Assembly: GCA_050258455.1 (NCBI GenBank)
Contig: JBLMYT010000114.1
Coordinates: 55,995 to 119,994, forward strand
Direction of reading: 5' to 3'
DNA from: Candidatus Omnitrophota bacterium
GTDB lineage: Bacteria > Acidobacteriota > Aminicenantia > UBA2199
Length of the DNA stretch: 64,000 bases
The position numbers and the translations under genes are program-made. The notes beneath the pieces were generated by a model. It had not been told where the DNA came from. It made no database searches and saw nothing but the letters and a program-made list of their open reading frames with translations. This document shows, piece after piece, positions 23,975-63,859 of the stretch; positions within the stretch are counted from its first letter, which is position 1; the number at the start of each line of letters is the position of its first letter.

Positions 23975-24121
23975 TTATTTTAAAAGTGGGGACTATTGGT
24001 TTCATTTGAGCTCTCCCAAAACAAAGACAAAATTTAAATTTATGATAGACGTATAGAAGCGTTGGCAGAAGCTGCCATCGTTCAAACAATCGATTATTCA
24101 GACAAGATAAGGAGTGATACC

Positions 24122-28213: not shown

Positions 28214-28216
28214 TCA

Positions 28217-37200: not shown

Positions 37201-39709
37201 GAACCGTTATGGAATTACAGTATTGCATATTACGCCCACGCATTTTCAGGCGCTCATTTTTTCGGGGAAGCGTTTACCGTCATTGCGTCATTTGTGTTTT
37301 GGCGCCGAAAAGCTTGCCCATGATTTGGTGGAGAAGAGCATTGAGGTTATCGAACCTCAATGCCGAATCTATAACATGTATGGTCCCACCGAAGCCACGA
37401 TTATGGCAGCGGTATTAACGATCGATCGGTCCAGGTTACCGTTTTACAGTCAGTTGTCCGGTGTTCCGATCGGAGAAAATCTGGGAAATAATGTCCTTTT
37501 CATATTGGACAGAAGTTTTAACTTGTGTCCGATCCATATCTTTGGCGAATTATACATCGGCGGTGACGGCGTTTCACCGGGATACTTAAACAACCCCGAA
37601 TTAACAGTTAAACGGTTTATCTCCGTGACCTCCGTGCGCTCCGTGAGAGACAAATTATATAAAACCGGGGATTTATGTCGATGGTTGGATGATGGAACCA
37701 TTGAGTTTTTGCATCGCATGGATGAGCAGGTTAAGATCAGGGGATTTCGCATTGAGTTGGGGGAGATTGAAAGTCGTTTATTAACGTGTGATCACATCAA
37801 AGAAGCCGTCGTCATTGTGAGAGAAAAGACGAGCGGCGACAAATATCTGGCTGCGTATGTGGTTTCGGATATTGAACTTTCGGAATCCGAATTAAACGAT
37901 TATTTATTAAAGACATTACCGGACTATATGGTCCCTTCTTCTTTTACGCAATTGGAAAAAATTCCGTTAAATCCCAATGGAAAATTGGACCGCAAAGCAT
38001 TACCTGAACCAGAGTGGAAAGGGGAGACCGGTTATGCGGCCCCGCAAAATGCTACGCAAGTCAAACTGGTAGAGATATGGTCCGATATCTTAAATGTCGA
38101 AGAAAATTCTATTGGCATAGACACCAATTTCTTTCAATTGGGAGGGCATTCATTGAAAGCAGTCCTCTTGCTTTCCAAAATCCATCAAGCGTTGAGTGTC
38201 AAACTCCCATTTATTCAACTCTTTAAAACCCCAACCATCAGAGAATTGTCCTCATATATAAAAGGGATGACGAAAGCGAAGGCGGAAGTCATTGAACCGG
38301 TGGAACAAAAAGAATATTACCGGCTGTCATCGGCTCAGAAACGGATTTTCTTCATGCAGCAATTGGATCCGGCCAGTACCACCTATAATATCCCGCAGGC
38401 CAATCTCATTCGCGGGCAATTGGACCTGGTCTTATTGGACTCCACCTTTTACCGTTTGTTGCAACGCCATGAGAGTTTGAGAACGTCGTTTGAGATGATC
38501 CATGAAGAACCGGCGCAACGCATTCATCCCGACGTGAGATTTAATATTGAATATTCTACCGGTAAACCCGGGCTTGGGAGCCCGGGTACCGGAGAACCGG
38601 TTGAGGATTTCACCCCTTACCTCGAAGGTTTTGTCAAACCCTTTGATTTGAGCCAAGCGCCCTTAATCCGGGTTAAAGTGGTCGAAATCGAGCGATTCAC
38701 GCATATCCTGCTGATCGATGTCCATCATATCGTCACCGATGGGGTATCCAATGGGATACTACTCAGGGATTTCGATTTTCTGTATCGGAATAAAGGCGCA
38801 GAATTACCGGAGTTACGGATCCAGTACAAAGAATATGCCGAATGGCAAGGCCGCAAGGATCAAAGACAAAGGTTAACGCAGCAGGAAAATTACTGGTTGC
38901 ATCAATTGGGGCACGGTATTCCGGTTCTTGATATTCCGACCGATTATCCCCGGCCGACCCCCCGAAGTCTAAAAGGCGATGCGATCCGGTGGGATATCGA
39001 TGAAACTTTGTCTGCCCGTATTCGGGCGTTCGTAAGCGATGTCGGTTGCACGTTAAATATTTTCTTCCTGGCTGTCCATCAGGTGCTATTGGCAAAATAT
39101 TCGAACCAAGAAGATATTATTGTCGGAACCGTATCCGCTGGCCGGCGACATGCCGATTTGGAACATACCGTTGGAATGTTTATCAACATGTTGGCTATCC
39201 GCAACCAGCCGTATAAAGAGAAAGTATTTAAAGACTTTTTGTTGGAAGTCAAACAACGGTCGATCGATGCGTATGAAAACCAGGATTACCAATTCGATGA
39301 CCTGGTCTTAAAATTGGGATTACAAAGGGCTCAGGACCGCACCCCCATATTTGAGACGGTATTTGTGGTTCAGAATCTTGAAATGGGGCACTCCCTTAAA
39401 CAGGACGGTCTCACCGCATCAGAGGAAATCAGTGTGTTGGAAATTCCCAGGAGCCAGTTGGAAAGCCAATACTATGATTTGATCTTTCAAGCCGAGGAAA
39501 GGCCGGACGTCATCAAAATGGTGCTGCTGTATGCCACGGCCCTATTCAAACGCTCCACTGCCGAATGGATCCAAAAACACTTTATGGACATTTTGGCCCA
39601 GGTGGTCAAACAACCGGATTTAAAATTAATGGATATTGAGATCACCCAACAATTTTTGAAAGCCGATTCCAACGTGATTAAAGATCAGCCATCGGATTTT
39701 CGATTTTAG
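28217..39709 (+). CDS. NRPS 2 (three modules): orphan C-lobe, then A-PCP-sulfotransferase, C-A-PCP, C-A-PCP and a final C
   Basis: There are three complete A domains, with A3 cores LAYIIYTSGSTGKPKGV, LAYVIYTSGSTGMPKGV and LAYIIYTSGSTGKPKGVF. The three PCPs are LGGNSLLG, LGGHSIKAS and LGGHSLKAV. The three C domains carry HHIISDGWS, HHIISDGTS and HHIVTDGVS. An embedded sulfotransferase domain has a 5'-PSB-like motif CPPRSGSTLL and a 3'-PB-like motif RNPYAVIHS. The RBS AGGAGGA lies inside the end of NRPS 1. The protein is 3830 aa. Confidence 0.9.
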   Translation: MAVDIHTLALYNTCEDYWLKTLNGVTLTPIFGDQSNNGISTRDSWRVAFPPGLSDSIHSMVRGEDTNAFLIFLTAFNILIYKYTHADDILIHTPDFRDEESKNSEDAMLFFRTHPGEDQIIRDLLNQFLSELNGAYENHQFLYESLLRRFNDNQNGDVNALSAFGLRYNRFNLESLRMEASHLFFSIEQRDHGIDLLIHYHTCSYTSDQIAQLARHYIHILASMVSNLDTPLHAIGIFSPEDKQKLMEFIGEEIEAPEEGKTFLARFERQVEDSPQSPALACGPVTLSYRALNERANQLARRLRHEAPLANDDSVALVMDRSPKMVESILAVWKCGAAYIPIDPSYPQERIDTIINDSGAKLMIRETGNISFKVEQTLKPATRVIYLDQIENDRLHEDKTNLCVPRHPGDLAYIIYTSGSTGKPKGVMIEQRGMMNHLHAKISEIQIDATSVIAQNASHCFDISVWQFFAALLVGGKTIIYSDQAVLNPTAFTRQLAEDGVNILEVVPSYLSVILDLIEDQQTGDALAGCRCLLVTGESVKPGLVNRWFKTFPGIRMVNAYGPTEASDDITHFVMDRFPGTGNIPIGKTLRNFRIYIVNSRMELCPVGVKGEILVSGLGVGRGYLNDIKKTTDAFMEDPFRPERGFRLYKTGDIGRYLPDGNIEFFGRKDYQVKVRGYRIELEEIENKLSRLDGIRDAAVVEKDSKNKGDGMYLCAYITLRDGVRTRTEEIKTELARTLPHYMIPAFIVVLDALPLTPNGKLDRKALPDPDESGIGDVAYVAPRNAIEIKLAEIWRQVIGVEQIGIHDNFFALGGNSLLGIRIVNKIQEWLHETVHVTILFLAPTIEQLAVKLESYRQEKETRINEADIAELRSLMPPLPPLPSHLVRPGKTPPVLFILCPPRSGSTLLRVILAGHPGLFAPQELQLLSFNTLTERKAALSGTYSLYLEGVIRAIMEMKAIGADQAKQIMEAFEAQGMTVQEFYGILQHWLGETMLVEKTPQYAYDINVLQRAEAYFDSALYIHLVRNPYAVIHSYENARLDQLFEYPHRFSTRELAELLWVICNQNILQFLETIPAGRKYRMEYEELVGNPESVVSRMCEHFGLEFDRGMLDVYDDAGHRMTDGIYAESKMLGDVKFFSHTSIDTTSVEKWKEKYTTEFLGQTAVDLAKYFGYLRGRHEYPTIEPAPEKEYYELSPAQRRLWLLDRLVENQIAYNMPGAYWVEGNLHIDVLEKSYAAAIKRHEILRTTFVSVEGPPRQKIHAFEAMGYRLDYLDLRTDPGREETAAYLIREEAAKPFNLEQGPLIRTRLIHMDANRYIFLFNMHHIISDGWSMHGLMKEIIAYYDAYATNSAESLEPLRLQYKDYSEWMTRESTQRVLQQQEKYWLDQFAEDIPVLSLPTDYARPAIMSFEGHTVNFDFTAQETGELTKVARSEGVTLFILLISIFNVFLSKVSGEEDIIIGTPVAGRNHPDLEHILGMFVNTLALRNYPRGEMTFIRFLHHLKTLMLEAFENQDYPFETLVEKLEITRDTSRNPLFDVMFTIQDIYESDRGLNQFSDLKIKPYAFDHRISKFDLLLATFETDGRVCFVFEYCTALFREGTIQRFIQYVKAIARSIIQDPAIRISDMEIITPEEKRQIISDFNRTQAAYPSDKTIEMLFEDQVKKTPDCIAVIGSTVSLPKPVETLCTAFLHLTYKELNERSDRLAYELIQKGVEPDAIVGIKIERSIQMIIGIFAILKAGGAYLPIDPDYPQERIEYMLKDSQAHLLVTHCLGAAPCIGPGVINPELPSVPAVSAVREKSNLAYVIYTSGSTGMPKGVVVKREGFLNLLYWYINEFNINPNDNVLLIASVSFDLAQKNVFSSFMVGGCLTLASPGLPDYSTLSKLIQKAPITLINCAPSVFYPLVEFNRNSGFTDLNTLRWVILGGEPILIEKLLPWMDSESYRCQIANTYGPTECTDIASCYRIPNEKIRDLKSIPIGKPVSNVAVYILGKYREILPVGVVGELYIGGIGVSQGYYNNRQLTEEKFLELSHLPESKIYRTGDMGRWLDDGNIEFLGRVDDQVKINGMRIELGEIEHVLLSHNEIKDAVVIVHKKEKTDYYLCAYIISHKNLSIADIQEYLSYRLPQYMIPTHFIQLEHIPLTPSGKVDKRSLPDPEMGSTRSYIAPENAVEKEMVKIWAEVLGMAKDRISMDDNFFQLGGHSIKASLLVSQIRKAFDVNISLSDIFRISTVRGLSHQIKGSVKEKYLSIPPAEKKEYYELSSAQRRLYILHQMDEKGINYNISSVFLLEGEIDKDRFEGTFRQLIDRHESLRTSFPMVGNEPMQRIHDDVEFEINYLATEFTGDTEGEGKKVSGIENFIKFFDLSKAPLMRVELMRVDDNTHLLAVGMHHIISDGTSMNIVVQDFMAFYKGEELPEVQIQYRDFSEWQKRENQKELRKQQEAFWLNEFEGEIPVLDLPADFLRPSIQSFEGRRVQFELDKETTGLLKALALETGATLYMMLLALYNVFLSKICNQEDIVIGSPIAGRSHSDLEKVVGMFVNTLALRNYPIGEKVFTDFLEEVKGNILRDFENQEYPYEELVERVLVNRDTGRNPLFDTMFVLQNADMQSLAIPGLVLTPYEYENHVSKFDLTLSAIEKEDRLCFTFEYSTKLFKRETIERFISYFKNIVNGVIENRARTLSNFEIITEEEKNHLLYDFNHTEVEYTKDKTIQQLFEERACRGWDRIALVGAISGIGAASGVCPQLSYAELNERSNRFAYELIQKGVGPDVIVGIKIERSIEMIIGILGVLKAGGAYLPIDPGLPQERVDYMLNDSRAKFIFLTEHTGDTGGSGVEVETLRSWEVKKAVFLDPFNLSVCPAGAHTGAPLRNSESISLLDQLNLSSSQPLNFFPSSVPPVSSVRNHSNLAYIIYTSGSTGKPKGVFIRHSNICPLLHWGYEHLALTSDDRSVQNLSYYFDWSVWEIFIALTSGAGLHMVSNELIMDGVSYADYMNRYGITVLHITPTHFQALIFSGKRLPSLRHLCFGAEKLAHDLVEKSIEVIEPQCRIYNMYGPTEATIMAAVLTIDRSRLPFYSQLSGVPIGENLGNNVLFILDRSFNLCPIHIFGELYIGGDGVSPGYLNNPELTVKRFISVTSVRSVRDKLYKTGDLCRWLDDGTIEFLHRMDEQVKIRGFRIELGEIESRLLTCDHIKEAVVIVREKTSGDKYLAAYVVSDIELSESELNDYLLKTLPDYMVPSSFTQLEKIPLNPNGKLDRKALPEPEWKGETGYAAPQNATQVKLVEIWSDILNVEENSIGIDTNFFQLGGHSLKAVLLLSKIHQALSVKLPFIQLFKTPTIRELSSYIKGMTKAKAEVIEPVEQKEYYRLSSAQKRIFFMQQLDPASTTYNIPQANLIRGQLDLVLLDSTFYRLLQRHESLRTSFEMIHEEPAQRIHPDVRFNIEYSTGKPGLGSPGTGEPVEDFTPYLEGFVKPFDLSQAPLIRVKVVEIERFTHILLIDVHHIVTDGVSNGILLRDFDFLYRNKGAELPELRIQYKEYAEWQGRKDQRQRLTQQENYWLHQLGHGIPVLDIPTDYPRPTPRSLKGDAIRWDIDETLSARIRAFVSDVGCTLNIFFLAVHQVLLAKYSNQEDIIVGTVSAGRRHADLEHTVGMFINMLAIRNQPYKEKVFKDFLLEVKQRSIDAYENQDYQFDDLVLKLGLQRAQDRTPIFETVFVVQNLEMGHSLKQDGLTASEEISVLEIPRSQLESQYYDLIFQAEERPDVIKMVLLYATALFKRSTAEWIQKHFMDILAQVVKQPDLKLMDIEITQQFLKADSNVIKDQPSDFRF
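36739..36950. repeat. Second, longer copy of the MITE/REP-like element, in frame in the A2-A3 loop of NRPS-2 module 3. It contains the palindrome GGGCGCACACACGGGTGCGCCCCTAC at 36805-36830 and a duplicated TTTTAGATC..CTTAACCTCTCA segment.
   Basis: The 26-mer at 36739-36764 is identical to 25321-25346, and the 28-mer at 36804-36831 is identical to intergenic 9861-9888. A repeated segment (CTTTTTAGATCCTTTTAACCTCTCAG ... CCTTTTAGATCAACTTAACCTCTCAT) flanks the palindrome and resembles a target duplication. Translation stays in frame as VCPAGAHTGAPLRNSES. Confidence 0.55.
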
Positions 39710-39744: not shown

Positions 39745-41433
39745 ATGAAAACGTTCAAGGACAGCAAAATACTTTTGGTGTTACTGCCTTTTTGGACCCC
39801 TTTGATTCCCCCTCCGGGAATCGCCGGTCTTAAAAGTTTTCTTCAGGGATACGGCTTTCGCGTCAAAGCCGTGGATGCCAACATCGAACCCGAATTTAAA
39901 TACATACACGATAAATATTTTGATACCTTAAGAGCCATGCTTCCCGAAGATAAATGGGGAAATTTTTTCAAGGTGGGTTATGAAGTATTACGAAATCATC
40001 TGATGGCTCATATCAATCATACCGAGCCCGGGCAATATATCGCGTTGGTCAAATTGTTGATATATCGAAATTATTACGTCAATGTGAACGATCATCAGGT
40101 GTTTGGATTAAATGGAATCCTGGATGAATTTTATGCCCGGCTGGAAACGTATGTTTCGGGCCTATTGGAAAAGGAGACGCCTGATGTATTGGGGGTATCG
40201 ACCACAGTCGGAACGCTCCCGGCCACGATGGTTGCCTGTGAAGTTACCAAACGGAAGTACCCCCACATCATGACGGTAATGGGCGGGTGTCTCTTTTCCT
40301 GGAGTTTGCATCAATCGCCTGACTTTGATGTTTTATTGGAAAAAGTTCCTTATATCGATAAAATTATTATTGGGGAAGGGGAGCAGTTGTTCTTGAAATT
40401 ACTTCAAGGCGAGCTCCCGGCATCTCAACGGGTGTATTCCCTTCAAGACATCGATGGAAAAGAACTGGACATTTCCCAGGCCACGATTCCCGATCTTTCG
40501 GACTTCGATTTGCAGGCCTATCCCTACCTGGTGGCTTCCGGCTCCATCGGATGTTCGTTTCAATGCGGCTTTTGTAATTTCCCCTCGTTGTATGGAAAAT
40601 ACAGAAAAAAAGAGGCCAAACGGATTGTTGACGAAATGACTGCGTTATACAGGGCCTATAAGTCTCAGATCTTTTTTATGAGCGATTTACTCATAAATCC
40701 GATTTTGCCTGAACTGTCAACTGAATTACTCAAATCCGAACGCATGTTTTATTGGGATGTGCATATGCGGTTGGATGAGCCCGTGACCAATCCGGAAAAT
40801 ACCCTCTTGTGGCGGCGTGCCGGTTTGTATCGGGCCCGGTTGGGGTTGGAGAGCGGGTCGCAGCGCGTGCTGAATTTGATGAATAAAAAGATTACCGTGG
40901 ACCAGGCCAAGGCCGCCATATCCAGCCTGGCGTATGCAGGGATCAAAACCTCGGTGTTCATCGTGGTAGGGTTTCCCGGGGAAACCGAAGCGGATTTCCA
41001 ACAAACCCTGGATTTTATCGAAGAAATGAAGCATGATATCTGGCACGTGGAAAGCACCCCGTTTCAGTATTTTTATACGGGCCAGGTCGAAGCCGACGAG
41101 TGGGCCAGGCACCGGAAACTCCTCTATCCCGCCGAATTCCGGGATATGTTGGTGACTCAAACCTGGATATTGGACTGCGAACCAACCCAGGAAGACACGT
41201 ATGACCGGGTCAATCGATTGGAAAAACATCTGCACCGATTGAATATACCCGATCCTTTTTCGTCCTTAGAGAATCATTACTACGCCGATGAACGTTGGAA
41301 ACGGCTTCATGAAAACGCTGTGCCTTCACTGGTGGAGTTTAAGAGTAATGACGACGTGGATGAGAAGAACAACATTAAGACATTGATCCTGGCGGAGAAA
41401 AAAACGCAGGAAAATGCAGCGTTTCGTTTTTAA
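39745..41433 (+). CDS. B12-binding radical SAM enzyme (class B radical SAM, probable methyltransferase)
   Basis: The N-terminal cobalamin-binding Rossmann domain is ILLVLLPFWTPLIPPPGIAGLKSFL ... IIIGEGEQLF. The radical SAM cluster motif is CSFQCGFC (CxxxCxxC). The RBS is AAGGAG. The protein is 562 aa. Confidence 0.85.
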   Translation: MKTFKDSKILLVLLPFWTPLIPPPGIAGLKSFLQGYGFRVKAVDANIEPEFKYIHDKYFDTLRAMLPEDKWGNFFKVGYEVLRNHLMAHINHTEPGQYIALVKLLIYRNYYVNVNDHQVFGLNGILDEFYARLETYVSGLLEKETPDVLGVSTTVGTLPATMVACEVTKRKYPHIMTVMGGCLFSWSLHQSPDFDVLLEKVPYIDKIIIGEGEQLFLKLLQGELPASQRVYSLQDIDGKELDISQATIPDLSDFDLQAYPYLVASGSIGCSFQCGFCNFPSLYGKYRKKEAKRIVDEMTALYRAYKSQIFFMSDLLINPILPELSTELLKSERMFYWDVHMRLDEPVTNPENTLLWRRAGLYRARLGLESGSQRVLNLMNKKITVDQAKAAISSLAYAGIKTSVFIVVGFPGETEADFQQTLDFIEEMKHDIWHVESTPFQYFYTGQVEADEWARHRKLLYPAEFRDMLVTQTWILDCEPTQEDTYDRVNRLEKHLHRLNIPDPFSSLENHYYADERWKRLHENAVPSLVEFKSNDDVDEKNNIKTLILAEKKTQENAAFRF

Positions 41434-41457
41434 ATATGTGGATACAGAGGAGAAGCA

Positions 41458-44400
41458 ATGAAGAATCAACGCCATCATGAGCTTGGAAATGTCGTGCTTG
41501 CAGCAAGACAATCGGAAAAAGAAAGAACGTACTGGAAAAATAAACTGGCGGGCGAATTACATCCCGGTCATTTTCCGTTTGATAAAAAACCAATGGGCCA
41601 TGTCCCCCGCCATCGGGATACCGTCCCATTTGAGATCGATGGGGACGTGTTCGCGAAACTCACCTGGATCATCAATGGGGCCGACACCTTACTCCATGTT
41701 ATTTTATGTTCGGTCGTGAAGGTATTACTTCATAAATATACAGGTAATACAGATATGATTATCGGTACACCGATTTATAAACAGGATATCGCAGGCGATT
41801 TTGTGAATACTATCTTGATTTTAAGAAATAAACTCGAAACGGCTATGAGTTTTAAGGACTTCTTGTTTCAGGTTAGAGACAGTCTTAATGAAGCCGTGGA
41901 GCATCAGAATTATCCGGTCGAAGGGATCTTCTATGACCTGGGGTTGCCCTACAACAGGGAGGACTGCCACTTGTTCGATACGGTGGTGATTCTGGAAAAT
42001 ATTCAAGCCTCCCACTATATCGACCACGTCAACCGGAATATTCTCTTCTCCTTTTTGCGGACCGATGGCGGGATGAACGGAACCATCGAATATAACACGA
42101 CCCTGTTTGAACGCCACACCATCGAGCGCATCCTGACCAGTCTCTTATTTATCATGCGCCAGGTCCTGTTTAATGTCACCATACCGTTGGATCAGGTGGA
42201 TGCCCTGACCGAAGACGAGAAGAAAACGCTATTAAGGGATTTCAATGGTCATGAAATCCAATATCCGAAGGAAAAAACGCTCCAGGATTTGTTTGAAGCG
42301 CAGGTCGAGACATCTCCGGACCGGGTCGCCGTGGTATACGACGGGCAAACATTAACGTACCGGGAATTGAACCGGAGGGCCAACCGTCTGGCCTGGTTAT
42401 TGAGGCATCAGCGGGTTGGCCCCAACGCTGTGGTCGGATTGATCAGCGAGCGGTCGTTAAATATGATTATCGGAATATGGGGGATTTTGAAATCCGGTGC
42501 TGCGTATTTACCCATTGACCCCTTATCGCCCACCAACCGCCTAATGGCCTTGGTACGGGACAGCGAGCCGTCTCATTTGGTTTTAACCGATAAGACGGTG
42601 GAACGACATTCGTACATGGCTTTCTTAAATCAGGATTTGGCCCATGTCAAGTTCATCAAAACGCCGCCCCGGCCGCCCATCGGCGAATTGGATATGCTGC
42701 CGTTCCCGGATCGTTCCCTGGTGGATTATGAGGTTTACAACCGGTATATTGGGCAGGCATTGGCCAAAAATAAAATGGTTCTTCAGGGATCCCGTGGGTG
42801 CCCGTTTAATTGTGCCTTTTGTCATAAGATATGGCCCAAAAAGCAAGTGAGCCGGTCCGCCGAAAATATCTTTGCGGAAATGCGCGTGTATTATGACATG
42901 GGGGTTCGCCGATTCGCTTTTGTGGATGACATATTTAATTTAAATATCGCTAATACATCGAGGCTATTCGACATGCTCATCGATCATCAGTTGAAGGTGG
43001 AATTATTCCTCGCGTTACGCGGGGATATCTTAACTCCCGAGTACATCGACCTCATGGTTCGAGCAGGGGCCGTGCGGATTACCATGTCACTGGAAACCGC
43101 CTCCGAACGCCTTCAAACCCTCATCGGCAAAAAGCTAAACCTTGACCGATTCCGGAAAAATATCGAGTACGTGTGTGAAAAGTACCCTCATGTTATCCTG
43201 GAGCTCAATACCCTGCATGGCATCCCGACCGAAACTCCCGAGGAAGCCCGCATGACCCTGGACTTTATTAAAGGGTTGAAGTGGCTCCATTTCCCCTATG
43301 TCCATGTCTTGAAAATTTATCAGAATACCGACATGGAAAAGATTGCCCTGCGAAGCGGTATTTCAAAAGAGGCCATTATCAGATCCGAAAATCTCGCCTA
43401 CCATGAGCTTCCGGAGACACTCCCGTTCGACAAAACGTTCTCGAAAAATTACCAGGCGGATTTTTTCAATAATTATTTCATGTCCAAAGAGCGTCTCCTC
43501 CGGGTGTTACCCTTCCAGATGAAGATTTTAACCGAAGACGAAATCGTACAGAAATACGACAGCTATGTGCCGGCGGATATTCATTCGCTTGACGATTTAT
43601 TGGCATATGCCGGCATTCGGAGAGACGAGTTGTCCATAACCCAATGTCGATCGGAAGAGCAAATCGCGATCCCGGATTTTAATCAAAAACTTCGGGCGGC
43701 TTTTCCTAAAACACCCCCCGCGGATTCGGCACAGGAATTGAAAATTTTACTCCTGGATTTATCCCAATTATTTACCGCCAATAAAAAGATGCTGTACGAT
43801 ATATTCGAGCCGCCGCTCGGGTTAATGAATTTATTGAGTTACGCGAGCCATCGATTGCCCGGTAAAATTAACGGGAAAATCGCAAAATCCCGGGTTGATT
43901 TTAATAATTACCGGGAGTTAAAAGCCCTTCTCGATGAATTTAAACCCGATGTTATCGGAGTTCGAACACTGAGTTTTTTCAAAGATTTTTTTCATCAAAC
44001 CATTGGGTTGATTCGTCAATGGGGAATTCAAACGCCAATTATTGCCGGAGGGCCTTACGTCACGAGTGATTATTTAACCATTCTGGCTGATCCGAATATC
44101 GATTTAATGGTCATTGGGGAGGGGGAGCTCACGTTCTGTGAGGTGATCGAGCGAATCATGGCCAATAACGGCCAGTTACCCGGACCTGAGGCGTTGCACC
44201 AAATCCCCGGGATCGTGTTTGCCACTCGGAGCGACAAAAACCAAACGGCCAGTCGCCCGCTTATTCAGATGGACGAAGTCATGAGATATACCCCGGATAT
44301 CCCGGATCATAATCCCCCGAGCATCAATCGGCCCGACGATCTATCCTATGTCATTTTTACTTCCGGCTCTACCGGTAAGCCCAAAGGCGTTAAGATCAGA

Positions 44401-47400
44401 CATCAAAGTGTTCACAACCTGGTCATTGGGTTAACCGAGCGCATTTACCACCGGTACTCACCCGGAGCTGCGGTCAGTTTGGTTGCCCCATACATCTTTG
44501 ATGCGTCGATAAAACAGATATTTGCCGCCCTGGTTTTGGGGCACACTCTCGATGTGGTCCCCGAAGATGCGCGGACCGACGGGGCTCGGTTGAGCGATTT
44601 CTTTAGACGACATCAGGTTGATATTATCGATGGAACCCCCACGCATCTTCGCTTGTTGCGGGAAATTCTGGGGAGCGGAAACCCGGGATTTTCCCCTCGG
44701 CATTTTGTGATTGGAGGAGAGGCCTTCCCCCGCGGACTGGCCCGAGAAATAGGAGAGATATTCAATATCAACGGGCACGCGTGCACCATTACCAATGTAT
44801 ACGGCCCGACCGAATGTTGCGATGTCTCGACCACGTATGAAATGACCCTTGAGGATCCCCACCCGGGGGATATTCTACCTATCGGTAAGCCCATGCCCAA
44901 TGTCCGTGTTTATATTCTGGATCCGGATCTTCGATTGGTGCCGATCGGAATGATGGGCGAATTGTGTATCGGAGGCGATGGGGTTGCGGCCGGTTATTTA
45001 AACAGCGATGTGCTCACATCGCAAAAGTTTATTGAGAATCCCTTTGAAAAAGGGACATCGTTGTATCGAAGCGGTGACCTGGTTCGATGGTTGGCGAATG
45101 GGCATATCGAATTCGTGGGGAGAAAGGACCATCAAATTAAAATCCGGGGATTCCGGATCGAACCCGGAGAAATTGAGAAACAACTCCTGCATATTGAGCA
45201 TATCAAGGAATGCATGGTCGTGGCGAAAAAAGACGCCAGGGGCGATAACTTTTTATGTGCGTATATTGTTCCCCGGCACGGCGAAATCGCGTTGAAGCAG
45301 ATGACCACCGTGAACCCTCCCTTTCATTTTGAAAAAATGATCAAAAAACATTCCGAGTTTCGCCTAAACGATATGGCACTCAGTGGGGATATGTTTATCT
45401 CGGAGGCGTTGACAAACCCTGGCGATTCCCAACCCCGCACCCGCTCTTTTGCTCAGCATTTTCAAACGTTGGTAATGGAAAAAAGCGATGAAATCGCGGT
45501 GAAATCAGGTACCCAATCTTTGTCGTTTCATTTGCTGGATGCTCAATCCAACCGGTTGGCAAGACGAATTATCGAATCGTACGATGACCGGTTCCAATTA
45601 TCCGGAGAAGAACATAACCGGTACCAACGTCAAATCCTCCTGGACCGCTGGGGAGTGGAATGTCAGGAAAAGCTTAAAAGTACAACGGTATTTGTTGCCG
45701 GGGCCGGCGGCATTGGGTCTCAGATCATCCAGCAACTGGCGCTGCTGGGATTCGGCACCTTGATCATCTGCGATGACGATACAGTGGAATTGTCGAATTT
45801 AAACCGTCAGAGTATGCATGATCTGTCGCGAATGGGTATGAATAAGGCCTTGTCAGCCCAAATGACCGTCCAGCGAATAAACCCTCACGTTACCGTGAGG
45901 GTGCGACAGGAGCGAATCAAATGGGAGAATATTGATGATTTGGTCGAAGATTCCCAAATCATTTTCGATTGCGTGGATGACCTTGAAACCAAATTCATCC
46001 TATCCGAGGCCGCAGTAGCTCGGCAAATTCCCCACATCCTTTCCGGGATGATCGAGGTCAATTCATTTGCTGCTATTTTGCATGCCCCCCGTACCGCTTG
46101 CTTCCATTGCATTTATGACCGGAGCAAAGTCGATGAAATTAACGAAATGAGGAAAACCGTTACCAATTACCGGAAGAAACCTTTCCCCGTTGCTGCCCCG
46201 GCTCTTTTTGTGACGACCGGTTTTGTATGCAACGAAGCGCTCAAAATCGTGTTGGGGTTTGAAAACCCGGCGTATGATAAATTTTTTGTATTCAACCAGA
46301 TGGGAACGCCTCGAATTGTCGAAACGGAAGGGTACAAACAAATGACGTTTGCATTTAACGATCATTTAAAGCAGACCTCCAAAGCCCAGGGATTTGATTG
46401 GGATATATGTTGGAGTGGAAAGTTTGTCGAAGAATTGACGATCGGCCCGGATCCCCATTGCCCCCTTTGTTCCCAAAAGCGGCGGCAACAAGCGGGTACT
46501 CGGTCCGAAGGAACCGGAATCGGGCATACGGGTTCGCCGGCGGTAAATAACGAAACAAAGGGGCACCAATCCGTGGCCTCGATCTTGAATAATGACGTGG
46601 GGTCGATTTTGTCGCTTCTCGGCACCTTTAAATCGGGAAAAACCTACGTTCCGCTCAATCCCACGTCCCCCGATAAAAAATTGGCTTACCTGGTTGAGGC
46701 GATCGGTTCCCGGTTAATACTGACCGATAGTGAAAATCTCGATCACGCATTAAAAATCAGGGATCGGGTGAATAAGCGAATCCCTGTAATTAATATCGAT
46801 GAGGTCGGTGATGAAGACGATGGCTTAACCGAAATCCCGGATATCGATATCTCTCCCGATTCCGAAGCTTATCTTTTCCCTCAATTTAATACCCGGAGTC
46901 AGGATGTTCCGTTAACGCCCTCCGGGTTGCGGGAGTTTTTGTTAAAGGAATTACCGGACTATATGATTCCCAATTATTTTATGGAAATTGAAACGTTTCC
47001 TTTGACCGCCAATGGAAAATTGGATATCGATGCCTTGCCGGAACCCAGGATCGGCCAGCCGGATGAAAATCATGAAGTTCCCCGAAATCCGGTTGAAAAA
47101 AAATTAGCCGAAATCTGGTCGGATGTTCTTTCGGTCAATGGGGATTTGATTGGAATCAACTCTCATTTTTTCGATTTGGGGGGGCATTCCTTGCGAGCGA
47201 CATCGCTGATCGCCAAAATCAACAAAGAATTTAATGTTAAAGTGCCCCTGGTGGAAGTTTTTCGCACGCCGACCATCAAAGGCCTGGCGCAATTTATCTC
47301 CAATTCCCAAAGAGAGAACGCGAGCGTTAGTGATGATGCTCACCTGGTGAGGCTCAACGTGCGACCCGGAGAATCCGGGAACTTGTTCTTTATCCATGAA

Positions 47401-48195
47401 ATTAGTGGAGGCGTGGATGGCTATATGGAATTTGTTCTCCACCTGGATGTGAATCTGAATTGTTGGGGGATTCGGGCCGCATGGGATGATTACCCGGCGC
47501 CCAAAAATCAAACCATTGAAGAGATGGCAACTCGCTACATCGAAACAATGAAGATGGTTCAGCCCCGCGGGCCTTATTTTCTGGTCGGGTGGTCGCTGGG
47601 CGGATCCATTGCCTTTGAAATGGTTCGGCAATTGGAACAATCGAATGAACCTATAGGGTTTGTGTCTTTGATTGATTCGGTGGGGCCCCGTGGCGCTTTC
47701 CAAAAAGATGCCCTCCCTTTTACGTCCGAATCTGAGAAGGCGTTTGTCCGTCGTGCCATATCGGATCCCGAGCTCCATGAAAAACTTGAAAGCGCTTCAG
47801 GGTTGGATCAAATTTGGTCTGTAATTGGGGAATATCTGGAGAAGACCCCCGCCGGTATGGATATCCTGAAAGAGGAAATCCGGAAAAATACCAATCCCGG
47901 AATGGGGATAGACGGGCAGATAAAGCCGATGGATATGATTAAACGATTCAATATGGCACGCACGCTGGCGAATGCATGGTCGCTGTATAATCCGGCCGAA
48001 AAAATCAAAACACCGATCCATTACGTTGCGGCGGTCAGGTCGAAAGAGACTATTAAAGATAAATGGGAGGATTATTCCGAACAACCGATTTTACATTATG
48101 AAATTGACGGGGACCATTTCTCCATATTTCGAAAGCCGGATGTCCTCGCTTTTGCAGAAAAATTTTGTAATATGGTGCGTACTGTTATATCATGA
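41458..48195 (+). CDS. Terminal NRPS 3: orphan C-lobe, then one A domain split by two insertions, then PCP and thioesterase. The first insertion is a radical SAM plus B12-binding unit between A2 and A3. The second is a ThiF/MoeB E1-like domain between A8 and A9/A10.
   Basis: The A cores in order are A1 LTYRELNRRANRLA and A2 LKSGAAYLPIDP, then an insertion of about 590 aa. The insertion carries the radical SAM motif GSRGCPFNCAFCH and later a B12-binding Rossmann segment ILLLDL..PPLGLMNLLSYA..KPDVIGVRTLSF..IIAGGPY..MVIGEGE. The A cores resume with A3 LSYVIFTSGSTGKPKGV, A4 FDAS, A5 NVYGPTE, A6 GELCIGGDGVAAGYL, A7 YRSGDL and A8 GRKDHQIKIRGFRIEPGEIE. A second insertion of about 450 aa carries the E1 Rossmann segment YQRQILLDRWGVECQEKLKSTTVFVAGAGGIGSQIIQQLALLGFGTLIICDDDTVELSNLNRQ and two CxxC pairs (CFHC, CPLC). 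The A domain ends with A9/A10 LPDYMIPNYF..TANGKLDIDALPEP. The PCP motif is LGGHSLRAT and the TE motif is GWSLGGSIA. The protein is 2245 aa and has no internal stop codons. Confidence 0.85.
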   Translation: MKNQRHHELGNVVLAARQSEKERTYWKNKLAGELHPGHFPFDKKPMGHVPRHRDTVPFEIDGDVFAKLTWIINGADTLLHVILCSVVKVLLHKYTGNTDMIIGTPIYKQDIAGDFVNTILILRNKLETAMSFKDFLFQVRDSLNEAVEHQNYPVEGIFYDLGLPYNREDCHLFDTVVILENIQASHYIDHVNRNILFSFLRTDGGMNGTIEYNTTLFERHTIERILTSLLFIMRQVLFNVTIPLDQVDALTEDEKKTLLRDFNGHEIQYPKEKTLQDLFEAQVETSPDRVAVVYDGQTLTYRELNRRANRLAWLLRHQRVGPNAVVGLISERSLNMIIGIWGILKSGAAYLPIDPLSPTNRLMALVRDSEPSHLVLTDKTVERHSYMAFLNQDLAHVKFIKTPPRPPIGELDMLPFPDRSLVDYEVYNRYIGQALAKNKMVLQGSRGCPFNCAFCHKIWPKKQVSRSAENIFAEMRVYYDMGVRRFAFVDDIFNLNIANTSRLFDMLIDHQLKVELFLALRGDILTPEYIDLMVRAGAVRITMSLETASERLQTLIGKKLNLDRFRKNIEYVCEKYPHVILELNTLHGIPTETPEEARMTLDFIKGLKWLHFPYVHVLKIYQNTDMEKIALRSGISKEAIIRSENLAYHELPETLPFDKTFSKNYQADFFNNYFMSKERLLRVLPFQMKILTEDEIVQKYDSYVPADIHSLDDLLAYAGIRRDELSITQCRSEEQIAIPDFNQKLRAAFPKTPPADSAQELKILLLDLSQLFTANKKMLYDIFEPPLGLMNLLSYASHRLPGKINGKIAKSRVDFNNYRELKALLDEFKPDVIGVRTLSFFKDFFHQTIGLIRQWGIQTPIIAGGPYVTSDYLTILADPNIDLMVIGEGELTFCEVIERIMANNGQLPGPEALHQIPGIVFATRSDKNQTASRPLIQMDEVMRYTPDIPDHNPPSINRPDDLSYVIFTSGSTGKPKGVKIRHQSVHNLVIGLTERIYHRYSPGAAVSLVAPYIFDASIKQIFAALVLGHTLDVVPEDARTDGARLSDFFRRHQVDIIDGTPTHLRLLREILGSGNPGFSPRHFVIGGEAFPRGLAREIGEIFNINGHACTITNVYGPTECCDVSTTYEMTLEDPHPGDILPIGKPMPNVRVYILDPDLRLVPIGMMGELCIGGDGVAAGYLNSDVLTSQKFIENPFEKGTSLYRSGDLVRWLANGHIEFVGRKDHQIKIRGFRIEPGEIEKQLLHIEHIKECMVVAKKDARGDNFLCAYIVPRHGEIALKQMTTVNPPFHFEKMIKKHSEFRLNDMALSGDMFISEALTNPGDSQPRTRSFAQHFQTLVMEKSDEIAVKSGTQSLSFHLLDAQSNRLARRIIESYDDRFQLSGEEHNRYQRQILLDRWGVECQEKLKSTTVFVAGAGGIGSQIIQQLALLGFGTLIICDDDTVELSNLNRQSMHDLSRMGMNKALSAQMTVQRINPHVTVRVRQERIKWENIDDLVEDSQIIFDCVDDLETKFILSEAAVARQIPHILSGMIEVNSFAAILHAPRTACFHCIYDRSKVDEINEMRKTVTNYRKKPFPVAAPALFVTTGFVCNEALKIVLGFENPAYDKFFVFNQMGTPRIVETEGYKQMTFAFNDHLKQTSKAQGFDWDICWSGKFVEELTIGPDPHCPLCSQKRRQQAGTRSEGTGIGHTGSPAVNNETKGHQSVASILNNDVGSILSLLGTFKSGKTYVPLNPTSPDKKLAYLVEAIGSRLILTDSENLDHALKIRDRVNKRIPVINIDEVGDEDDGLTEIPDIDISPDSEAYLFPQFNTRSQDVPLTPSGLREFLLKELPDYMIPNYFMEIETFPLTANGKLDIDALPEPRIGQPDENHEVPRNPVEKKLAEIWSDVLSVNGDLIGINSHFFDLGGHSLRATSLIAKINKEFNVKVPLVEVFRTPTIKGLAQFISNSQRENASVSDDAHLVRLNVRPGESGNLFFIHEISGGVDGYMEFVLHLDVNLNCWGIRAAWDDYPAPKNQTIEEMATRYIETMKMVQPRGPYFLVGWSLGGSIAFEMVRQLEQSNEPIGFVSLIDSVGPRGAFQKDALPFTSESEKAFVRRAISDPELHEKLESASGLDQIWSVIGEYLEKTPAGMDILKEEIRKNTNPGMGIDGQIKPMDMIKRFNMARTLANAWSLYNPAEKIKTPIHYVAAVRSKETIKDKWEDYSEQPILHYEIDGDHFSIFRKPDVLAFAEKFCNMVRTVIS

Positions 48196-48244
48196 GTAGC
48201 GGCAATAAAAATCAATTTTTAAATCAATTTTTAAAGGTGAATAA

Positions 48245-49279
48245 ATGAAAGAAAAAAAATGTTCGTTTCAACTGTTTTTAAGTATATGGATTGTCATTTT
48301 CATGTTTGGAGCATCCGTCGTAGGGGCCGTTGAGAACCCCTTGAGTCTCTCAACGGTTCAAGAGGGGGTCTATCGGATCGTGGGTTTGAATCTTGAGGTT
48401 AATGTGACCTGTCTGGTCACCGGGGAAGGGGTATTGGTCATCGATTCAGGTACGAATCCTGTGGAAGGGCGATGGATTGTCGAGCGAATCAAAGAAAAAA
48501 CAGATAAACCGATTAAATATGTCGTGCTAACCCATTACCATTTTGATCATTCGGCGGGGTTAATGGGATTTCCCAAAGATGTAACGGTTTTGGCGCACGC
48601 CAATTGTTATCAAAATATTTCCAAATACAATGAAGCCCGGCGGGTCTCGCTGGTAGAGAAGGTTTTACCGGGGCAGATCCAGGGGATTCGTCAGGAGCTT
48701 GAAACGTTAAAAAAACAAAATAGCCCTGATATTAAAGAAAATGAAACGAAATTGGAAAACCTGACGCGGCAGTTGGAGGCATTCCAAAAAGCGAATGTGG
48801 TGTTGCCTTCCGTCACGTTTGAACAACAGTTGGTGCTCCGGTTGGGAGGAGAAAAAATCGAATGTATTTATCCGGGGCCGACGCATACCAATGGTAGTAT
48901 TTGCGTTTATGTACCGGACAAAAAATTATTAGTCACCGGGGATATGGTGTTCAATGGTTTTATTCCGTATATCGATTGGAAAGCGGGTTCCAATACCCGG
49001 AACTGGATCGATCAATTGGGGAAATTATCCCAATGGAATATTGAAACGGTGATCCCGGGTCATGGCGAACCGGTTGGCAAAGCGGTCCTGGATGAGCAGA
49101 AACGTTTTCTCTCGGATTTGAGGGCCAGTGTAACCGAGGCCATCGGTAAAGGATTGACGTTGGACCAAATGAAGACATCGATTAAATTGGCCAATTACAG
49201 TCATTTAAAATTTCCGAATTTCCTTGGTAGTGATATCGAATCGGTTTATGTCGAATTGACAAATAGCAAAAAGGAATAG
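48245..49279 (+). CDS. Secreted metallo-beta-lactamase-fold hydrolase
   Basis: There is a signal peptide. The MBL motif is THYHFDHSAG (HxHxDH), with further downstream His and Asp ligands. Confidence 0.8.
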   Translation: MKEKKCSFQLFLSIWIVIFMFGASVVGAVENPLSLSTVQEGVYRIVGLNLEVNVTCLVTGEGVLVIDSGTNPVEGRWIVERIKEKTDKPIKYVVLTHYHFDHSAGLMGFPKDVTVLAHANCYQNISKYNEARRVSLVEKVLPGQIQGIRQELETLKKQNSPDIKENETKLENLTRQLEAFQKANVVLPSVTFEQQLVLRLGGEKIECIYPGPTHTNGSICVYVPDKKLLVTGDMVFNGFIPYIDWKAGSNTRNWIDQLGKLSQWNIETVIPGHGEPVGKAVLDEQKRFLSDLRASVTEAIGKGLTLDQMKTSIKLANYSHLKFPNFLGSDIESVYVELTNSKKE

Positions 49280-49299
49280 GTTTGAAGAGGAGAAGCGGC

Positions 49300-50241
49300 A
49301 TGACGTTTGAAGAAACAATCGCATCGTCGAGAGTCGTATTAACGGAGGGGGGAATGGTTGAGCGAATTCGGCGGGATCCGGAAGTGCAATTGGATCCGTT
49401 TATTGCCCATTCGGGGTTGGTATATGAGGAAACCGGGCGTCGTGTTCTCGGCCGTATTTACAGGGAATACATCGACGTTGCCCACAGGTATCAGCTTCCC
49501 ATGATGAGTTATGCGCCCACCTGGAGGGCGAATCCGGAGAATCTCAAGAAATCGTTTTTTTGTAACTGTAAAGATATAACCATGGACTGTGTCGATTTCT
49601 TAAAGGAAATTCGGGCATGTTACGGCGAGTATTCTCCGTCGATTTTTATTGGGGGGTTAATGGCATGTAAGGGGAATGCGTATTGTCCGGAAGAAGCTCT
49701 GTCGAAAGAGGAAGCGGTAGTGTTTCACCGGGAGCAAGCGGAGGCGTTGGCGCGAAGCAAGGTGGATTTTATCAAAGCCGCTACTTTACCGGCAGTTTCC
49801 GAAGCCTATGGAATTGCGAAAGCCATTGCCTCCCAGGGAATTCCGTATATTTTAAGTTTTGTGGTCCGGCCCGATGGGTGCGTACTGGATGGAACCCCAA
49901 TTTATAGCGCAATTGAATGGATTGATTCGGAAATCCATCCCAAACCGATTTTTTATATGTTGAATTGTGTGCATCCGAAGATATTTGATCAAGCCGTCAG
50001 CCAGGAATCCAATATGTCCAAACAGGTAACCCGGCGGATTTTGGGGTTTCAAGCCAACACGTCTTCAAAGAGTCCAAAGGAGTTAGATAATTTATCCTAT
50101 TTGGATACATTGCCCCCAGAGGAGTTTGGCGGGATGATGATTGCGTTACACCGAAAATTTGCGATTAAAGTTTTAGGCGGGTGTTGTGGAACCGATGCCA
50201 GACATATTATCGAGATAGCCAAAAAATTAAAAAATTCCTGA
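49300..50241 (+). CDS. Homocysteine S-methyltransferase-family protein (PF02574-like; the same fold as the MetH homocysteine-binding domain)
   Basis: The C-terminal zinc-ligand motif is GGCCGTDARHI, with upstream Cys at CVHP. The ATG at 49300 follows GAGGAG. The ORF track starts at TTG 49282. Confidence 0.7.
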   Translation: MTFEETIASSRVVLTEGGMVERIRRDPEVQLDPFIAHSGLVYEETGRRVLGRIYREYIDVAHRYQLPMMSYAPTWRANPENLKKSFFCNCKDITMDCVDFLKEIRACYGEYSPSIFIGGLMACKGNAYCPEEALSKEEAVVFHREQAEALARSKVDFIKAATLPAVSEAYGIAKAIASQGIPYILSFVVRPDGCVLDGTPIYSAIEWIDSEIHPKPIFYMLNCVHPKIFDQAVSQESNMSKQVTRRILGFQANTSSKSPKELDNLSYLDTLPPEEFGGMMIALHRKFAIKVLGGCCGTDARHIIEIAKKLKNS

Positions 50242-55080: not shown

Positions 55081-55085
55081 CTTCC

Positions 55086-55394
55086 TTACCCCCGCATACT
55101 GGAAAGGACATCGCTGTCCAGGTTTTTAAATTTCCGGTGCACCTGCACGAGCAGACCCAAACCCACGGCTGCTTCGGCGCCGGCAGCGGTCAGGATGAAA
55201 ATAAACATGACCTGGCCGTCGGCCTGTCCCCATCGGGCCGCAGCAGCAATAAAGGCCAGTGCGGACGCGTTAATCATGATTTCCAGAGACATTAATGTAA
55301 ACAAGAGATTGCGGCGCGTCAGTACGCCGGCCACACCGAGAATGAATAACACGGCCGCCAACCCCAAACTATACGCGATCGGAATTCCGTTCAT
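55086..55394 (-). CDS. nuoK: NADH-quinone oxidoreductase subunit K
   Basis: The protein is 102 aa. GLEIMINASALAFIA and GQADGQVMFIFILTAAGAEAAVGL match conserved NuoK/ND4L motifs. Confidence 0.9.
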   Translation of the reverse strand: MNGIPIAYSLGLAAVLFILGVAGVLTRRNLLFTLMSLEIMINASALAFIAAAARWGQADGQVMFIFILTAAGAEAAVGLGLLVQVHRKFKNLDSDVLSSMRG

Positions 55395-55896
55395 CCGGAC
55401 TCTCCTTATGTTTCTTACTCAAATGCAAGGCACCGACCAATGCGGCGAGCAGCAGCACGGACGCGAGTTCCACCCCTAACCCGTACGTTCCGAAAAGAGA
55501 GAGCCCCACCTGCCGGGGATCGATCGCCATTCGTGGATACGTGGCTTCACTGCCTCGCCGGATCACGACAACCAACCATTCCACCAATAGAATGGCACTC
55601 AGAATCGACGGGCCCACCCAGGTTCCCGGCCGTAATAGGAATCGTTCCTGATTGAGGGTTTTGTCACCGGCGTTGAGCATCATGACGGCAAACAGGAACA
55701 GAACCATGATGGCCCCTGCATAGATGATGACTTCCAGCGCGGCTGCCAGATGCGCACCCAGGATGAAAAAAATCGTGGAAACAGCCAGAAGAGAGACCAC
55801 GAGGTACACCAGGGCATGAACCGCCTGCTTGCGCGTGATGGCCAAAAAGGTCGCGCCGATTGCCACCAGAGCAGAGATAAAAAATACGATTATCAT
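55369..55896 (-). CDS. nuoJ: NADH-quinone oxidoreductase subunit J
   Basis: It has 5 TM segments, an ND6-like profile, and sits in the expected operon position. Confidence 0.8.
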   Translation of the reverse strand: MIIVFFISALVAIGATFLAITRKQAVHALVYLVVSLLAVSTIFFILGAHLAAALEVIIYAGAIMVLFLFAVMMLNAGDKTLNQERFLLRPGTWVGPSILSAILLVEWLVVVIRRGSEATYPRMAIDPRQVGLSLFGTYGLGVELASVLLLAALVGALHLSKKHKESPDERNSDRV

Positions 55897-55933
55897 TGCG
55901 TTATCTCCTTATCCTCATCCTCATCCTATCCGT

Positions 55934-56449: not shown

Positions 56450-56472
56450 ACCGACCTCTCTCCCCCTACTGT

Positions 56473-61587: not shown

Positions 61588-61595
61588 TTTCGCTT

Positions 61596-62075: not shown

Positions 62076-62082
62076 GGTCCAC

Positions 62083-63852: not shown

Positions 63853-63859
63853 CGTTTCC

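Follow-up and report, generated by a model that had tools for sequence, protein, structure and literature searches.

A B12-type radical SAM protein, a doubly interrupted adenylation domain and an optional PF02574 protein at the 3' end of a nonribosomal peptide synthetase operon

Introduction

Class B radical S-adenosylmethionine (SAM) methylases take the methyl group for the re-methylation of their cob(I)alamin straight from SAM, and PoyC carries out radical C-methylation in peptides made on the ribosome and modified after translation (RiPPs). To our knowledge, DscE, described in 2025, is so far the only characterized radical C-methylase of nonribosomal peptides. This cobalamin-dependent radical SAM (rSAM) enzyme of the discodermin nonribosomal peptide synthetase (NRPS) pathway turns Val into tert-Leu once the peptide has been released and, in vitro, uses only SAM, methylcobalamin, and a reductant system (PMC12858407). 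Here we analyze a 64,000-nucleotide (nt) stretch of DNA (hereafter, the window; NCBI GenBank assembly GCA_050258455.1, contig JBLMYT010000114.1, positions 55,995 to 119,994 of the forward strand) from a Candidatus Omnitrophota bacterium. Positions 39745 to 50241 of the window encode a stand-alone, predicted B12-binding rSAM protein, an NRPS with a twice-interrupted adenylation (A) domain, a metallo-beta-lactamase-fold (MBL) hydrolase, and a protein of the homocysteine S-methyltransferase family (PF02574). We report that the PF02574 protein appears to be an optional accessory rather than a methyl donor on which the rSAM units depend, and that the NRPS is the more unusual feature of the region.

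Relatives of the other components have also been described. In MetH, the PF02574 module passes a methyl group from methylcobalamin to homocysteine, and in interrupted A domains the a2-a3 loop is the usual site of SAM methyltransferases. PF02574 enzymes such as BHMT regenerate methionine from homocysteine (PMC10992897), and Phaeobacter inhibens has a split MetH composed of separate PF02574, pterin-binding, and corrinoid proteins (bioRxiv 10.1101/192971). The account of Labby et al. (2015) given in PMC9259500 places the methyltransferase or other inserts of interrupted A domains at a2-a3 or a8-a9. A 2025 review counts one validated non-RiPP ThiF-like enzyme, OxzB (PMC12596934).

The stand-alone rSAM gene of the window resembles that of DscE from 'Candidatus Entotheonella' in lying inside an NRPS cluster as a separate B12-binding rSAM gene, and its product, like DscE, PoyB, and PoyC, would be expected to methylate unactivated peptide side-chain carbons by radical chemistry. 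This likeness is one of gene context and expected chemistry, not of sequence comparison. Stand-alone B12-type rSAM proteins in NRPS clusters have thus been a known kind since DscE, and the families described here are uncharacterized. The NRPS of the region (NRPS3) follows known interrupted A domains in its insertions at a2|a3 and a8|a9, in an A domain that is otherwise complete and followed by a thiolation (T) domain. It differs in that the inserts are a B12-type rSAM unit and a ThiF/MoeB-like E1 domain instead of class I SAM methyltransferases, and in that both sit in one A domain. The PF02574 protein shares a TIM-barrel family and a three-cysteine zinc site (NC..., GGCCG) with MmuM/YagD, BHMT, and the homocysteine module of MetH; in contrast to these, it falls below the equivalog cut-offs, carries an Ala in place of a Glu, and has no folate or B12 modules alongside. 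The split MetH is a model for how methyl groups could be exchanged between a free PF02574 protein and cobalamin bound by a different protein. However, the window holds no B12-cap corrinoid or pterin-binding protein, and its cobalamin domains occur only in the rSAM enzymes.

Results

Positions 39745 to 50241 form the 3' end of an NRPS operon of six genes (24062-50241) whose host is an uncultured anaerobe. Its four open reading frames (ORFs) all lie on the + strand, where a first-pass annotation made from the DNA alone had placed them. They encode the stand-alone rSAM protein (39745-41433, 562 amino acids [aa]; Pfam and NCBIfam matches), a member of what we call family 1; NRPS3 (41458-48195, 2245 aa), a terminal module that ends in T and thioesterase (TE) domains; the MBL hydrolase (48245-49279, 344 aa); and the PF02574 protein (49300-50241, 313 aa from its ATG start). 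An alternative TTG start for the last gene lies at 49282, and the 313-aa ATG product is identical to database protein P0121. Because the genes are co-directional, with gaps of 3 to 50 nt, these four and the upstream NRPS1 and NRPS2 genes (24062-39709) are most simply read as a single operon.

The 562-aa protein has the N-terminal B12-binding domain and the CSFQCGFC motif that had been read in it. PF04055 matched at 77 bits (aa 269-425), the cysteines lie in the sequence GCSFQCGFC, and PF02310 gave a marginal match at aa 140-217 (33.6 bits against a cut-off of 32.1), while the B12 domain of TokK matched at 35.6 bits. Its sequence matches, at 100% identity, that of P0001, which is encoded on a 121-kb contig of a Candidatus Omnitrophota metagenome-assembled genome (MAG). 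In an alignment of 29 homologues, the three cluster ligands of the CxxxCxxC motif (C270, C274, and C277) were the sole invariant cysteines; no auxiliary cluster is therefore expected in family 1. A methylthiotransferase reading, for which RimO was the best PDB sequence match, was dropped since there is no conserved Cys for an auxiliary cluster of the MiaB/RimO type.

The AlphaFold (AF2) model of the stand-alone protein (predicted local distance difference test [pLDDT], 89; predicted template-modeling score [pTM], 0.87) begins with a Rossmann domain (aa 8-220) that contains a long helical insert; the rSAM TIM core (aa 260-440) and a helical C-terminal domain follow. Its best Foldseek matches were TsrM (E 2e-13), MgmA, OxsB, MiaB, AprD4, and TokK, in agreement with the class-B-like architecture first assigned to it. 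TsrM, TokK, MgmA, OxsB, and AprD4 share its succession of N-terminal Rossmann domain, rSAM TIM barrel, and C-terminal domain (Foldseek E 1e-10 to 2e-13), yet at only 13 to 19% identity. The fold does not fix the function, because these matches include the non-methylating OxsB and AprD4 and the non-radical TsrM; AprD4 is an example of the same fold without cobalamin.

Placement by sequence was ambiguous. NCBIfam models for PhpK (120 bits), BchE (111), the RiPP C-methyltransferase family TIGR03975 (100), a ladderane-type model (87), and BzaD (83) all scored far below their cut-offs; TIGR03975 aligned over aa 9-430 against a cut-off of 282 bits. Searched against the PDB, the family-1 profile matched MgmA at 57 bits, TokK at 56, AprD4 at 35, OxsB at 33, TsrM at 21, and CysS at 13.5, the two best cobalamin-enzyme matches being the methylases MgmA and TokK. 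On these comparisons, family 1 appears to be a distinct clade that leans towards the methylases. From the DscE/PoyC group it is set apart by the long helical Rossmann insert, by a fixed slot at the junction between a condensation (C) domain and a following C'-A start (C' being a C-terminal condensation lobe alone), and by its TIGR03975 score.

Family 1 has more than 1,400 relatives at E <= 0.001, mainly from Aminicenantes/Acidobacteriota, Clostridia, and Bacteroidota MAGs. About 110 of the best 120 matches share 48 to 55% identity with the window's protein, and a few closest ones share 58 to 78%. A scan of 185,579 species genomes yielded 79 family-1 loci (L013-L091), and at 72 of these, NRPS A or C domains lie no more than 10 kb away. 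The end of a full C domain is at most 400 nt upstream of the rSAM gene in 49 of 71 loci, and the gene that follows opens with a C' lobe in 55 of 79. All family-1 contexts that we inspected (L001, L002, L004-L009, and L094) were NRPS or hybrid clusters. Family 1 is strictly NRPS-associated. A relative of the rSAM-B12 unit embedded in NRPS3 was present at 19 of the 79 loci and a ThiF insert at 6, whereas no PF02574 gene was found near the family-1 gene at any of the 79 (48 of which have at least 8 kb of downstream sequence), nor was an MBL gene.

Individual genomes can carry many such loci. One MAG has at least eight (L013, L019, L023, L024, L043, L045, L050, and L066), as does Aminicenantes Ww63 (L034, L051, L059, L063, L078, L079, L082, and L086), and two family-1 loci sometimes lie on the same contig. 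These multi-locus MAGs indicate that NRPS clusters decorated with rSAM genes have expanded greatly in such uncultured anaerobes. Cultured organisms with family-1 or family-2 (see below) rSAM proteins in or near NRPS genes include Wukongibacter sp. M2B1 (L031, NZ_CP138200), Ruminiclostridium cellobioparum DSM 1351 (L070), Chitinophaga sp. RAB17 (L076), and [Clostridium] polysaccharolyticum (P0347); in these tractable hosts the products could be sought.

The last ORF of the operon does belong to the homocysteine S-methyltransferase family, as the first-pass annotation had it: PF02574 matched well above its cut-off (102.6 bits versus 22) over aa 20-315 of the ORF read from TTG. The translation contains the motifs YMLNCVHP and LGGCCGTDARHI, with GGCCGTDARHI visible. 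The zinc triad, C223 (NCVHP) and C295/C296 (GGCCG), is invariant in 34 relatives and aligns with the corresponding motifs of MmuM and BHMT. However, the equivalog models of NCBIfam scored far below their cut-offs (MmuM, 63 versus 215 bits; YitJ type, 48 versus 453; BHMT, 42 versus 338; MetH, 21 versus 1011), and a PDB profile search gave 42.8 bits to MmuM (5dml), 32 to BHMT, and 23 to MetH. By these scores, the protein is not orthologous to any characterized homocysteine methyltransferase. It falls in a large clade of solitary PF02574 proteins of 310 to 320 aa with NC(V/A/T)HP and GGCCGTDxxH motifs and without the Glu of the MmuM 'CETLP' motif. Members of this clade occur widely among Desulfobacterota, Bacteroidota, Calditrichota, and Asgard archaea (as seen in loci L095-L174 and an alignment), and the one in the window stays below the curated cut-off of every NCBIfam model.

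The genomic contexts of PF02574 relatives show that its presence beside rSAM genes is optional and lineage restricted. The copies at 75 to 80% identity (L001 and L010) come after an NRPS3-type gene and an MBL gene, their start codons overlapping the stop codon of the latter, and remain attached to both. The downstream flank varies, with POR in L010 and nuo in the window. Since the position after the MBL gene is kept while the flank differs, the PF02574 gene belongs to the cluster and not to the flank. At 58 to 66% identity, in contrast, four of five contexts (L011, L012, L092, and L093) lack NRPS or rSAM genes nearby; the gene in L093 adjoins a Cys/Met pyridoxal phosphate (PLP) enzyme. The fifth, L094, is a different polyketide synthase (PKS)/NRPS cluster in which a family-1 rSAM gene (product 46% identical to the window's) is followed by C'-A-T-TE, a 130-aa membrane or secreted protein, and PF02574. 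Of 80 metagenome loci with PF02574 relatives (30 to 62% identity), 29 span 8 kb or more, and all of these lack rSAM and NRPS genes nearby; in a set of 30 PF02574 loci with lengths of 8 kb or more, L094 alone has an rSAM gene.

In a neighbor-joining tree, the L094 copy falls outside the clade of the window, L001, and L010. This suggests that PF02574 was recruited twice into rSAM-NRPS clusters, with identities (64 to 69%) too similar for the branching to be robust. The family-1 rSAM is the sole accessory gene common to the two PF02574-bearing cluster types. Three narrower ties were considered and set aside: to the substrate of the last module (the A-domain code is DAFLLGAVI in L094 versus DAKDVGVDV in the window), to the ThiF insert or the MBL gene (L094 has neither), and to a conserved partner gene beside the solitary copies (the downstream ORFs in L012, L092, L093, and L094 are mutually unrelated). 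Because PF02574 travels with the window, L001, and L010 and recurs in L094, some link to these rSAM-NRPS pathways is likely. In L094 (5612-7503), the PF02574 gene overlaps that of the upstream 130-aa protein, which has an N-terminal membrane or signal segment, and the next gene encodes a 172-aa protein with weak similarity to DinB (E 0.002-0.005). The PF02574 gene lies closely 3' of a gene for an exported or membrane protein in both cluster types (overlapping in L094, L001, and L010; 20 nt away in the window).

These distributions bear on the proposal of the first-pass annotation that the rSAM enzyme and the PF02574 protein form a dedicated cobalamin methyl-relay, in which the latter would load or reset the cobalamin of one or both rSAM enzymes. 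Two observations speak for such a relay: a stand-alone PF02574 protein can work alongside a corrinoid protein encoded on its own, the split MetH of Phaeobacter being an example (bioRxiv 10.1101/192971), and the gene occurs in two NRPS cluster types that share just the family-1 rSAM as an accessory. However, among window ORFs of at least 150 aa we found no corrinoid protein and no pterin-binding (PF00809) or B12-cap (PF02607) domain, nor did the window contain cob, cbi, or btu genes or a cobalamin or SAM riboswitch (Rfam). The relay is not supported, because PF02574 is missing from all 79 family-1 loci, its own clade mostly occurs without rSAM genes, and relay modules are lacking in the window; and because class B methylases are self-sufficient with SAM, DscE needs no partner, and the known chemistry of the PF02574 module, which takes methyl from methylcobalamin to a thiolate and does not load it, runs the opposite way.

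NRPS3 is the more unusual part of the region. The second rSAM/B12 unit that had been noted in it is present, but its domain order is the reverse of that in the stand-alone enzyme, and a ThiF/MoeB-like domain (PF00899, 191 bits) in the same protein had gone unmentioned. Comparison with Pfam and, by BLASTP, with the domains of NRPS1 resolves the protein into a C'-A-T-TE module whose A domain lies in three pieces (aa 274-378, 957-1273, and 1818-1860), separated by inserts at aa ~380-955 (a2|a3) and ~1275-1817 (a8|a9) and otherwise complete. In order along the + strand, a C' lobe without HHxxxDG (41497-42222; C-profile positions 187-456 only) precedes the N-terminal A piece, a1-a2 (42277-42591; NRPS1 A positions 1-114), and the embedded rSAM and B12-binding unit, family 2 (42640-44232; aa 395-925). 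The A-domain core, a3-a8 (44326-45276, placed by domain mapping), is separated by the ThiF/MoeB-like E1 adenylyltransferase domain (45622-46302) from a pseudo-A fragment in the second insertion that resembles the N-terminal part of an A domain (46585-46782; NRPS1 A 66-129 at E 5e-6, TIGR01733 23-124). The C-terminal A piece, a9-a10 (46909-47037; NRPS1 A 478-520, 60% identity), is followed by the T (peptidyl carrier protein) domain with GGHSL (47086-47310; Pfam and BLASTP) and the TE domain (47383-48159; PF00975, 78.7 bits). This architecture recurs in L001 (2247 aa) and L004 (2255 aa).

The embedded unit matches PF04055 at aa 445-604, with the motif GCPFNCAFC, and PF02310 at aa 822-896, exactly at the cut-off. 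The rSAM core thus comes first and the B12 Rossmann domain last. NCBIfam comparisons agree, with the rSAM cores of PhpK, ApyD, BchE, and AprD4 matching segment aa 5-245 and the B12 domain of KedN5 matching segment aa 401-528, the final 130 residues. Its AF2 model (pLDDT 91, pTM 0.90) gave AprD4 as the top Foldseek match (23 to 26% identity), MgmA and TsrM through the barrel, and the cobalamin domains of MetH and mutases through the Rossmann part; relative to TsrM, TokK, MgmA, OxsB, and AprD4, the two domains are in reverse order. Over the core it shares 27% identity with the stand-alone enzyme. Family 2 has more than 3,000 relatives; some colinear homologues are embedded in A domains, and others are free proteins of 540 to 580 aa, as in [Clostridium] polysaccharolyticum.

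The ThiF-like domain scored 157 bits with the ThiF model TIGR02356 and 151 bits with MoeB, every NCBIfam equivalog remaining below its cut-off. Its GAGGIGS nucleotide loop, NLNRQ motif, and two CxxC pairs are intact in the translation. A-domain codes were extracted against a GrsA reference and are approximate. The code common to NRPS3, L001, and L004, ~DAKDVGVDV, resembles Glu codes and so points, with low confidence, to a Glu-like residue. Our literature search, which covered rSAM enzymes in NRPSs or interrupted A domains, Aminicenantes, and ThiF in NRPSs, found no report of an rSAM-B12 or ThiF/MoeB insert in an A domain. As judged from its domain composition, an A domain split twice in this way, once by a B12-rSAM unit of reversed domain order and once by an E1-like domain, would be a new form of interrupted A domain.

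The MBL protein was rightly described as secreted, insofar as its N terminus is hydrophobic and signal-peptide-like (MKEKKCSFQLFLSIWIVIFMFGASVVGA). PF00753 matched at 98 bits, with an HYHFDH motif of the HxHxDH type. The best NCBIfam model was SoxH-related zinc metallohydrolase 2 (129 bits), followed by subclass B1 MBL (93 bits), and the protein falls in no named beta-lactamase family, all such scores being far below their cut-offs. Relatives at 52 to 63% identity follow NRPS3-type genes in L001, L010, and L004, the last having another NRPS gene after the MBL gene. Because of this, and because none of the 79 other family-1 loci has one, the MBL gene is tied to this type of terminal module more tightly than PF02574 is.

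The remainder of the operon begins at 24062 with NRPS1 (C'-A-T-C) and continues with NRPS2 (C'-A-T-sulfotransferase-C-A-T-C-A-T-C). A C' fragment without HHxxxDG opens every NRPS protein (24167-24907, 28259-28951, and 41497-42222), and a full C domain closes every NRPS protein upstream of one that starts with C'. The sulfotransferase domain of NRPS2 (PF13469, 99.5 bits; aa 894-1108, window 30896-31540) follows the first T domain, and a homologue (58% identity) lies upstream of the family-1 rSAM gene in L036. No epimerization (E) domains were seen in this NRPS in the domain annotation of the window. At the 3' side, a convergent nuo operon faces the operon end at 50241, and promoter and terminator scans at the operon ends returned nothing beyond shuffled expectation. 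The G+C content is ~0.41 to 0.51 in the NRPS operon (24000-50000) versus 0.50 to 0.54 in the adjacent nuo operon (52000-64000), and the closest relatives of the NRPS operon are in Acidobacteriota MAGs, whereas the contig is labeled Omnitrophota. Both features are compatible with horizontal transfer or mis-binning. Elsewhere in the window, a tRNA gene (68 bits; 498-570, + strand) lies inside a mechanically called ORF for a bactofilin-like protein (438-1130), so the true start of that gene must be 3' of the tRNA.

Discussion

The reading of the region that we favor combines a self-sufficient radical C-methylase rSAM enzyme, an accessory PF02574 zinc thiol methyltransferase, and an MBL hydrolase; as a whole, we give it an even chance. 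The stand-alone rSAM protein would be a trans-acting tailoring enzyme of the assembly line, most likely a class B radical C-methyltransferase. By analogy with that class, it would bind cobalamin and transfer methyl groups: one SAM would yield the 5'-deoxyadenosyl radical, a second would re-methylate the enzyme's own cobalamin, and the target would be an unactivated carbon of the carrier-bound or released peptide. Within NRPS3, the domain anatomy suggests that the embedded rSAM-B12 unit probably acts in cis on the aminoacyl-S-T intermediate and that the ThiF/MoeB-like domain (a8-a9) probably adenylates a carboxylate of the same residue, which, going by the specificity code, may be Glu-like. The MBL protein would act on the product outside the cytoplasm, and a periplasmic role in maturation or self-protection (immunity) is a reasonable expectation.

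The PF02574 protein, with its conserved zinc site, would be a zinc-thiolate methyltransferase that is dispensable for the rSAM enzymes and was recruited from the widespread solitary clade. Most likely, it would convert homocysteine to methionine with a sulfonium donor or S-methylate another thiol. The homocysteine could come from the S-adenosylhomocysteine left by class B turnover; SAM-cycle genes encoded in biosynthetic gene clusters exist in other pathways. A recruited solitary zinc thiol methyltransferase that supports or decorates these pathways is more economical than a relay.

Several observations weigh against this interpretation. The cyclase BchE scores nearly as high as PhpK with the stand-alone enzyme (111 versus 120 bits), the dehydratase AprD4, which does not depend on B12, ranks with the top structural matches of family 1 and first for the embedded unit, and PF02310 lies just at its threshold for both rSAM units. 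The literature search found no paper on either rSAM family and no characterized member. In the PF02574 protein, Ala161 replaces the Glu of MmuM 'CETLP' and BHMT 'AEYFE', which we take to hold the amino group of homocysteine in place; the substrate may therefore not be homocysteine. The same Ala is present in every relative compared, down to 30% identity, which rules out a cluster-specific adaptation. No Cys-type A-domain code that would supply a product thiol was found in the NRPS operon by our approximate codes. In addition, the occurrence of PF02574 in two rSAM-NRPS cluster types leaves room for a tie to the rSAM enzyme more specific than salvage.

The first group of these observations would also fit an rSAM chemistry other than methylation, in which the stand-alone unit, the embedded unit, or both catalyze epimerization, dehydration, rearrangement, or cyclization, with or without cobalamin. 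OxsB joins AprD4 among the top structural matches, and no E domains are seen in the NRPS. We regard this alternative as somewhat unlikely in view of the methylases MgmA and TokK as best cobalamin-enzyme sequence matches, the full-length similarity to TIGR03975, and the precedent of DscE.

For the PF02574 protein, the main alternative to homocysteine salvage is S-methylation (or Se-methylation) of a thiol or thioacid, either on the peptide or on one of its building blocks, a product-tailoring role that we consider unlikely. The intact zinc-thiolate machinery, the missing canonical Glu (compatible with another thiol substrate), and the translational coupling of the gene within the operon are all in accord with it, and the ThiF/MoeB-like domain could in principle make a thiocarboxylate. 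However, besides the lack of a Cys-type code, the two features do not travel together: L094 has PF02574 without ThiF, and L004 has ThiF without PF02574 in the sequence examined. The Glu-to-Ala change, being common to the whole solitary clade, also says little for a function specific to this cluster.

That PF02574 is a housekeeping gene merely adjoining the cluster is very unlikely. The gene is the last before the convergent nuo operon and belongs to a mostly solitary, widespread clade, but its place after the MBL gene is kept in L001 and L010, with overlapping codons and a flank that changes from nuo to POR, and it is found again inside an NRPS operon in L094. We assign a slim chance to a 'methyl valve', in which the zinc-activated PF02574 thiolate would load enzyme-bound cobalamin from a sulfonium donor or strip its methyl group; if true, this would be the first accessory of such a kind for a class B rSAM enzyme, here alongside an A domain whose two inserts would both act on the tethered residue. 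The pathway-specific relay is, for the reasons given above, the least probable explanation of all.

On the favored interpretation, of a self-sufficient radical methylase with optional accessories, the PF02574 gene is of lesser weight: it would be an optional accessory from an uncharacterized clade of the homocysteine methyltransferase family. Of greater weight is the wiring of B12-type rSAM proteins into NRPS assembly lines, either through separate genes where modules meet or through insertion into A domains. The window is part of a very large unstudied reservoir of such systems in Aminicenantes, Clostridia, Bacteroidota, and others, often with many copies per genome, and the cultured carriers make these readings testable. 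If the inserts of NRPS3 are active, they would widen the concept of the interrupted A domain beyond simple SAM methyltransferases, to include radical and E1-type chemistry, and may give rise to new non-proteinogenic residues.

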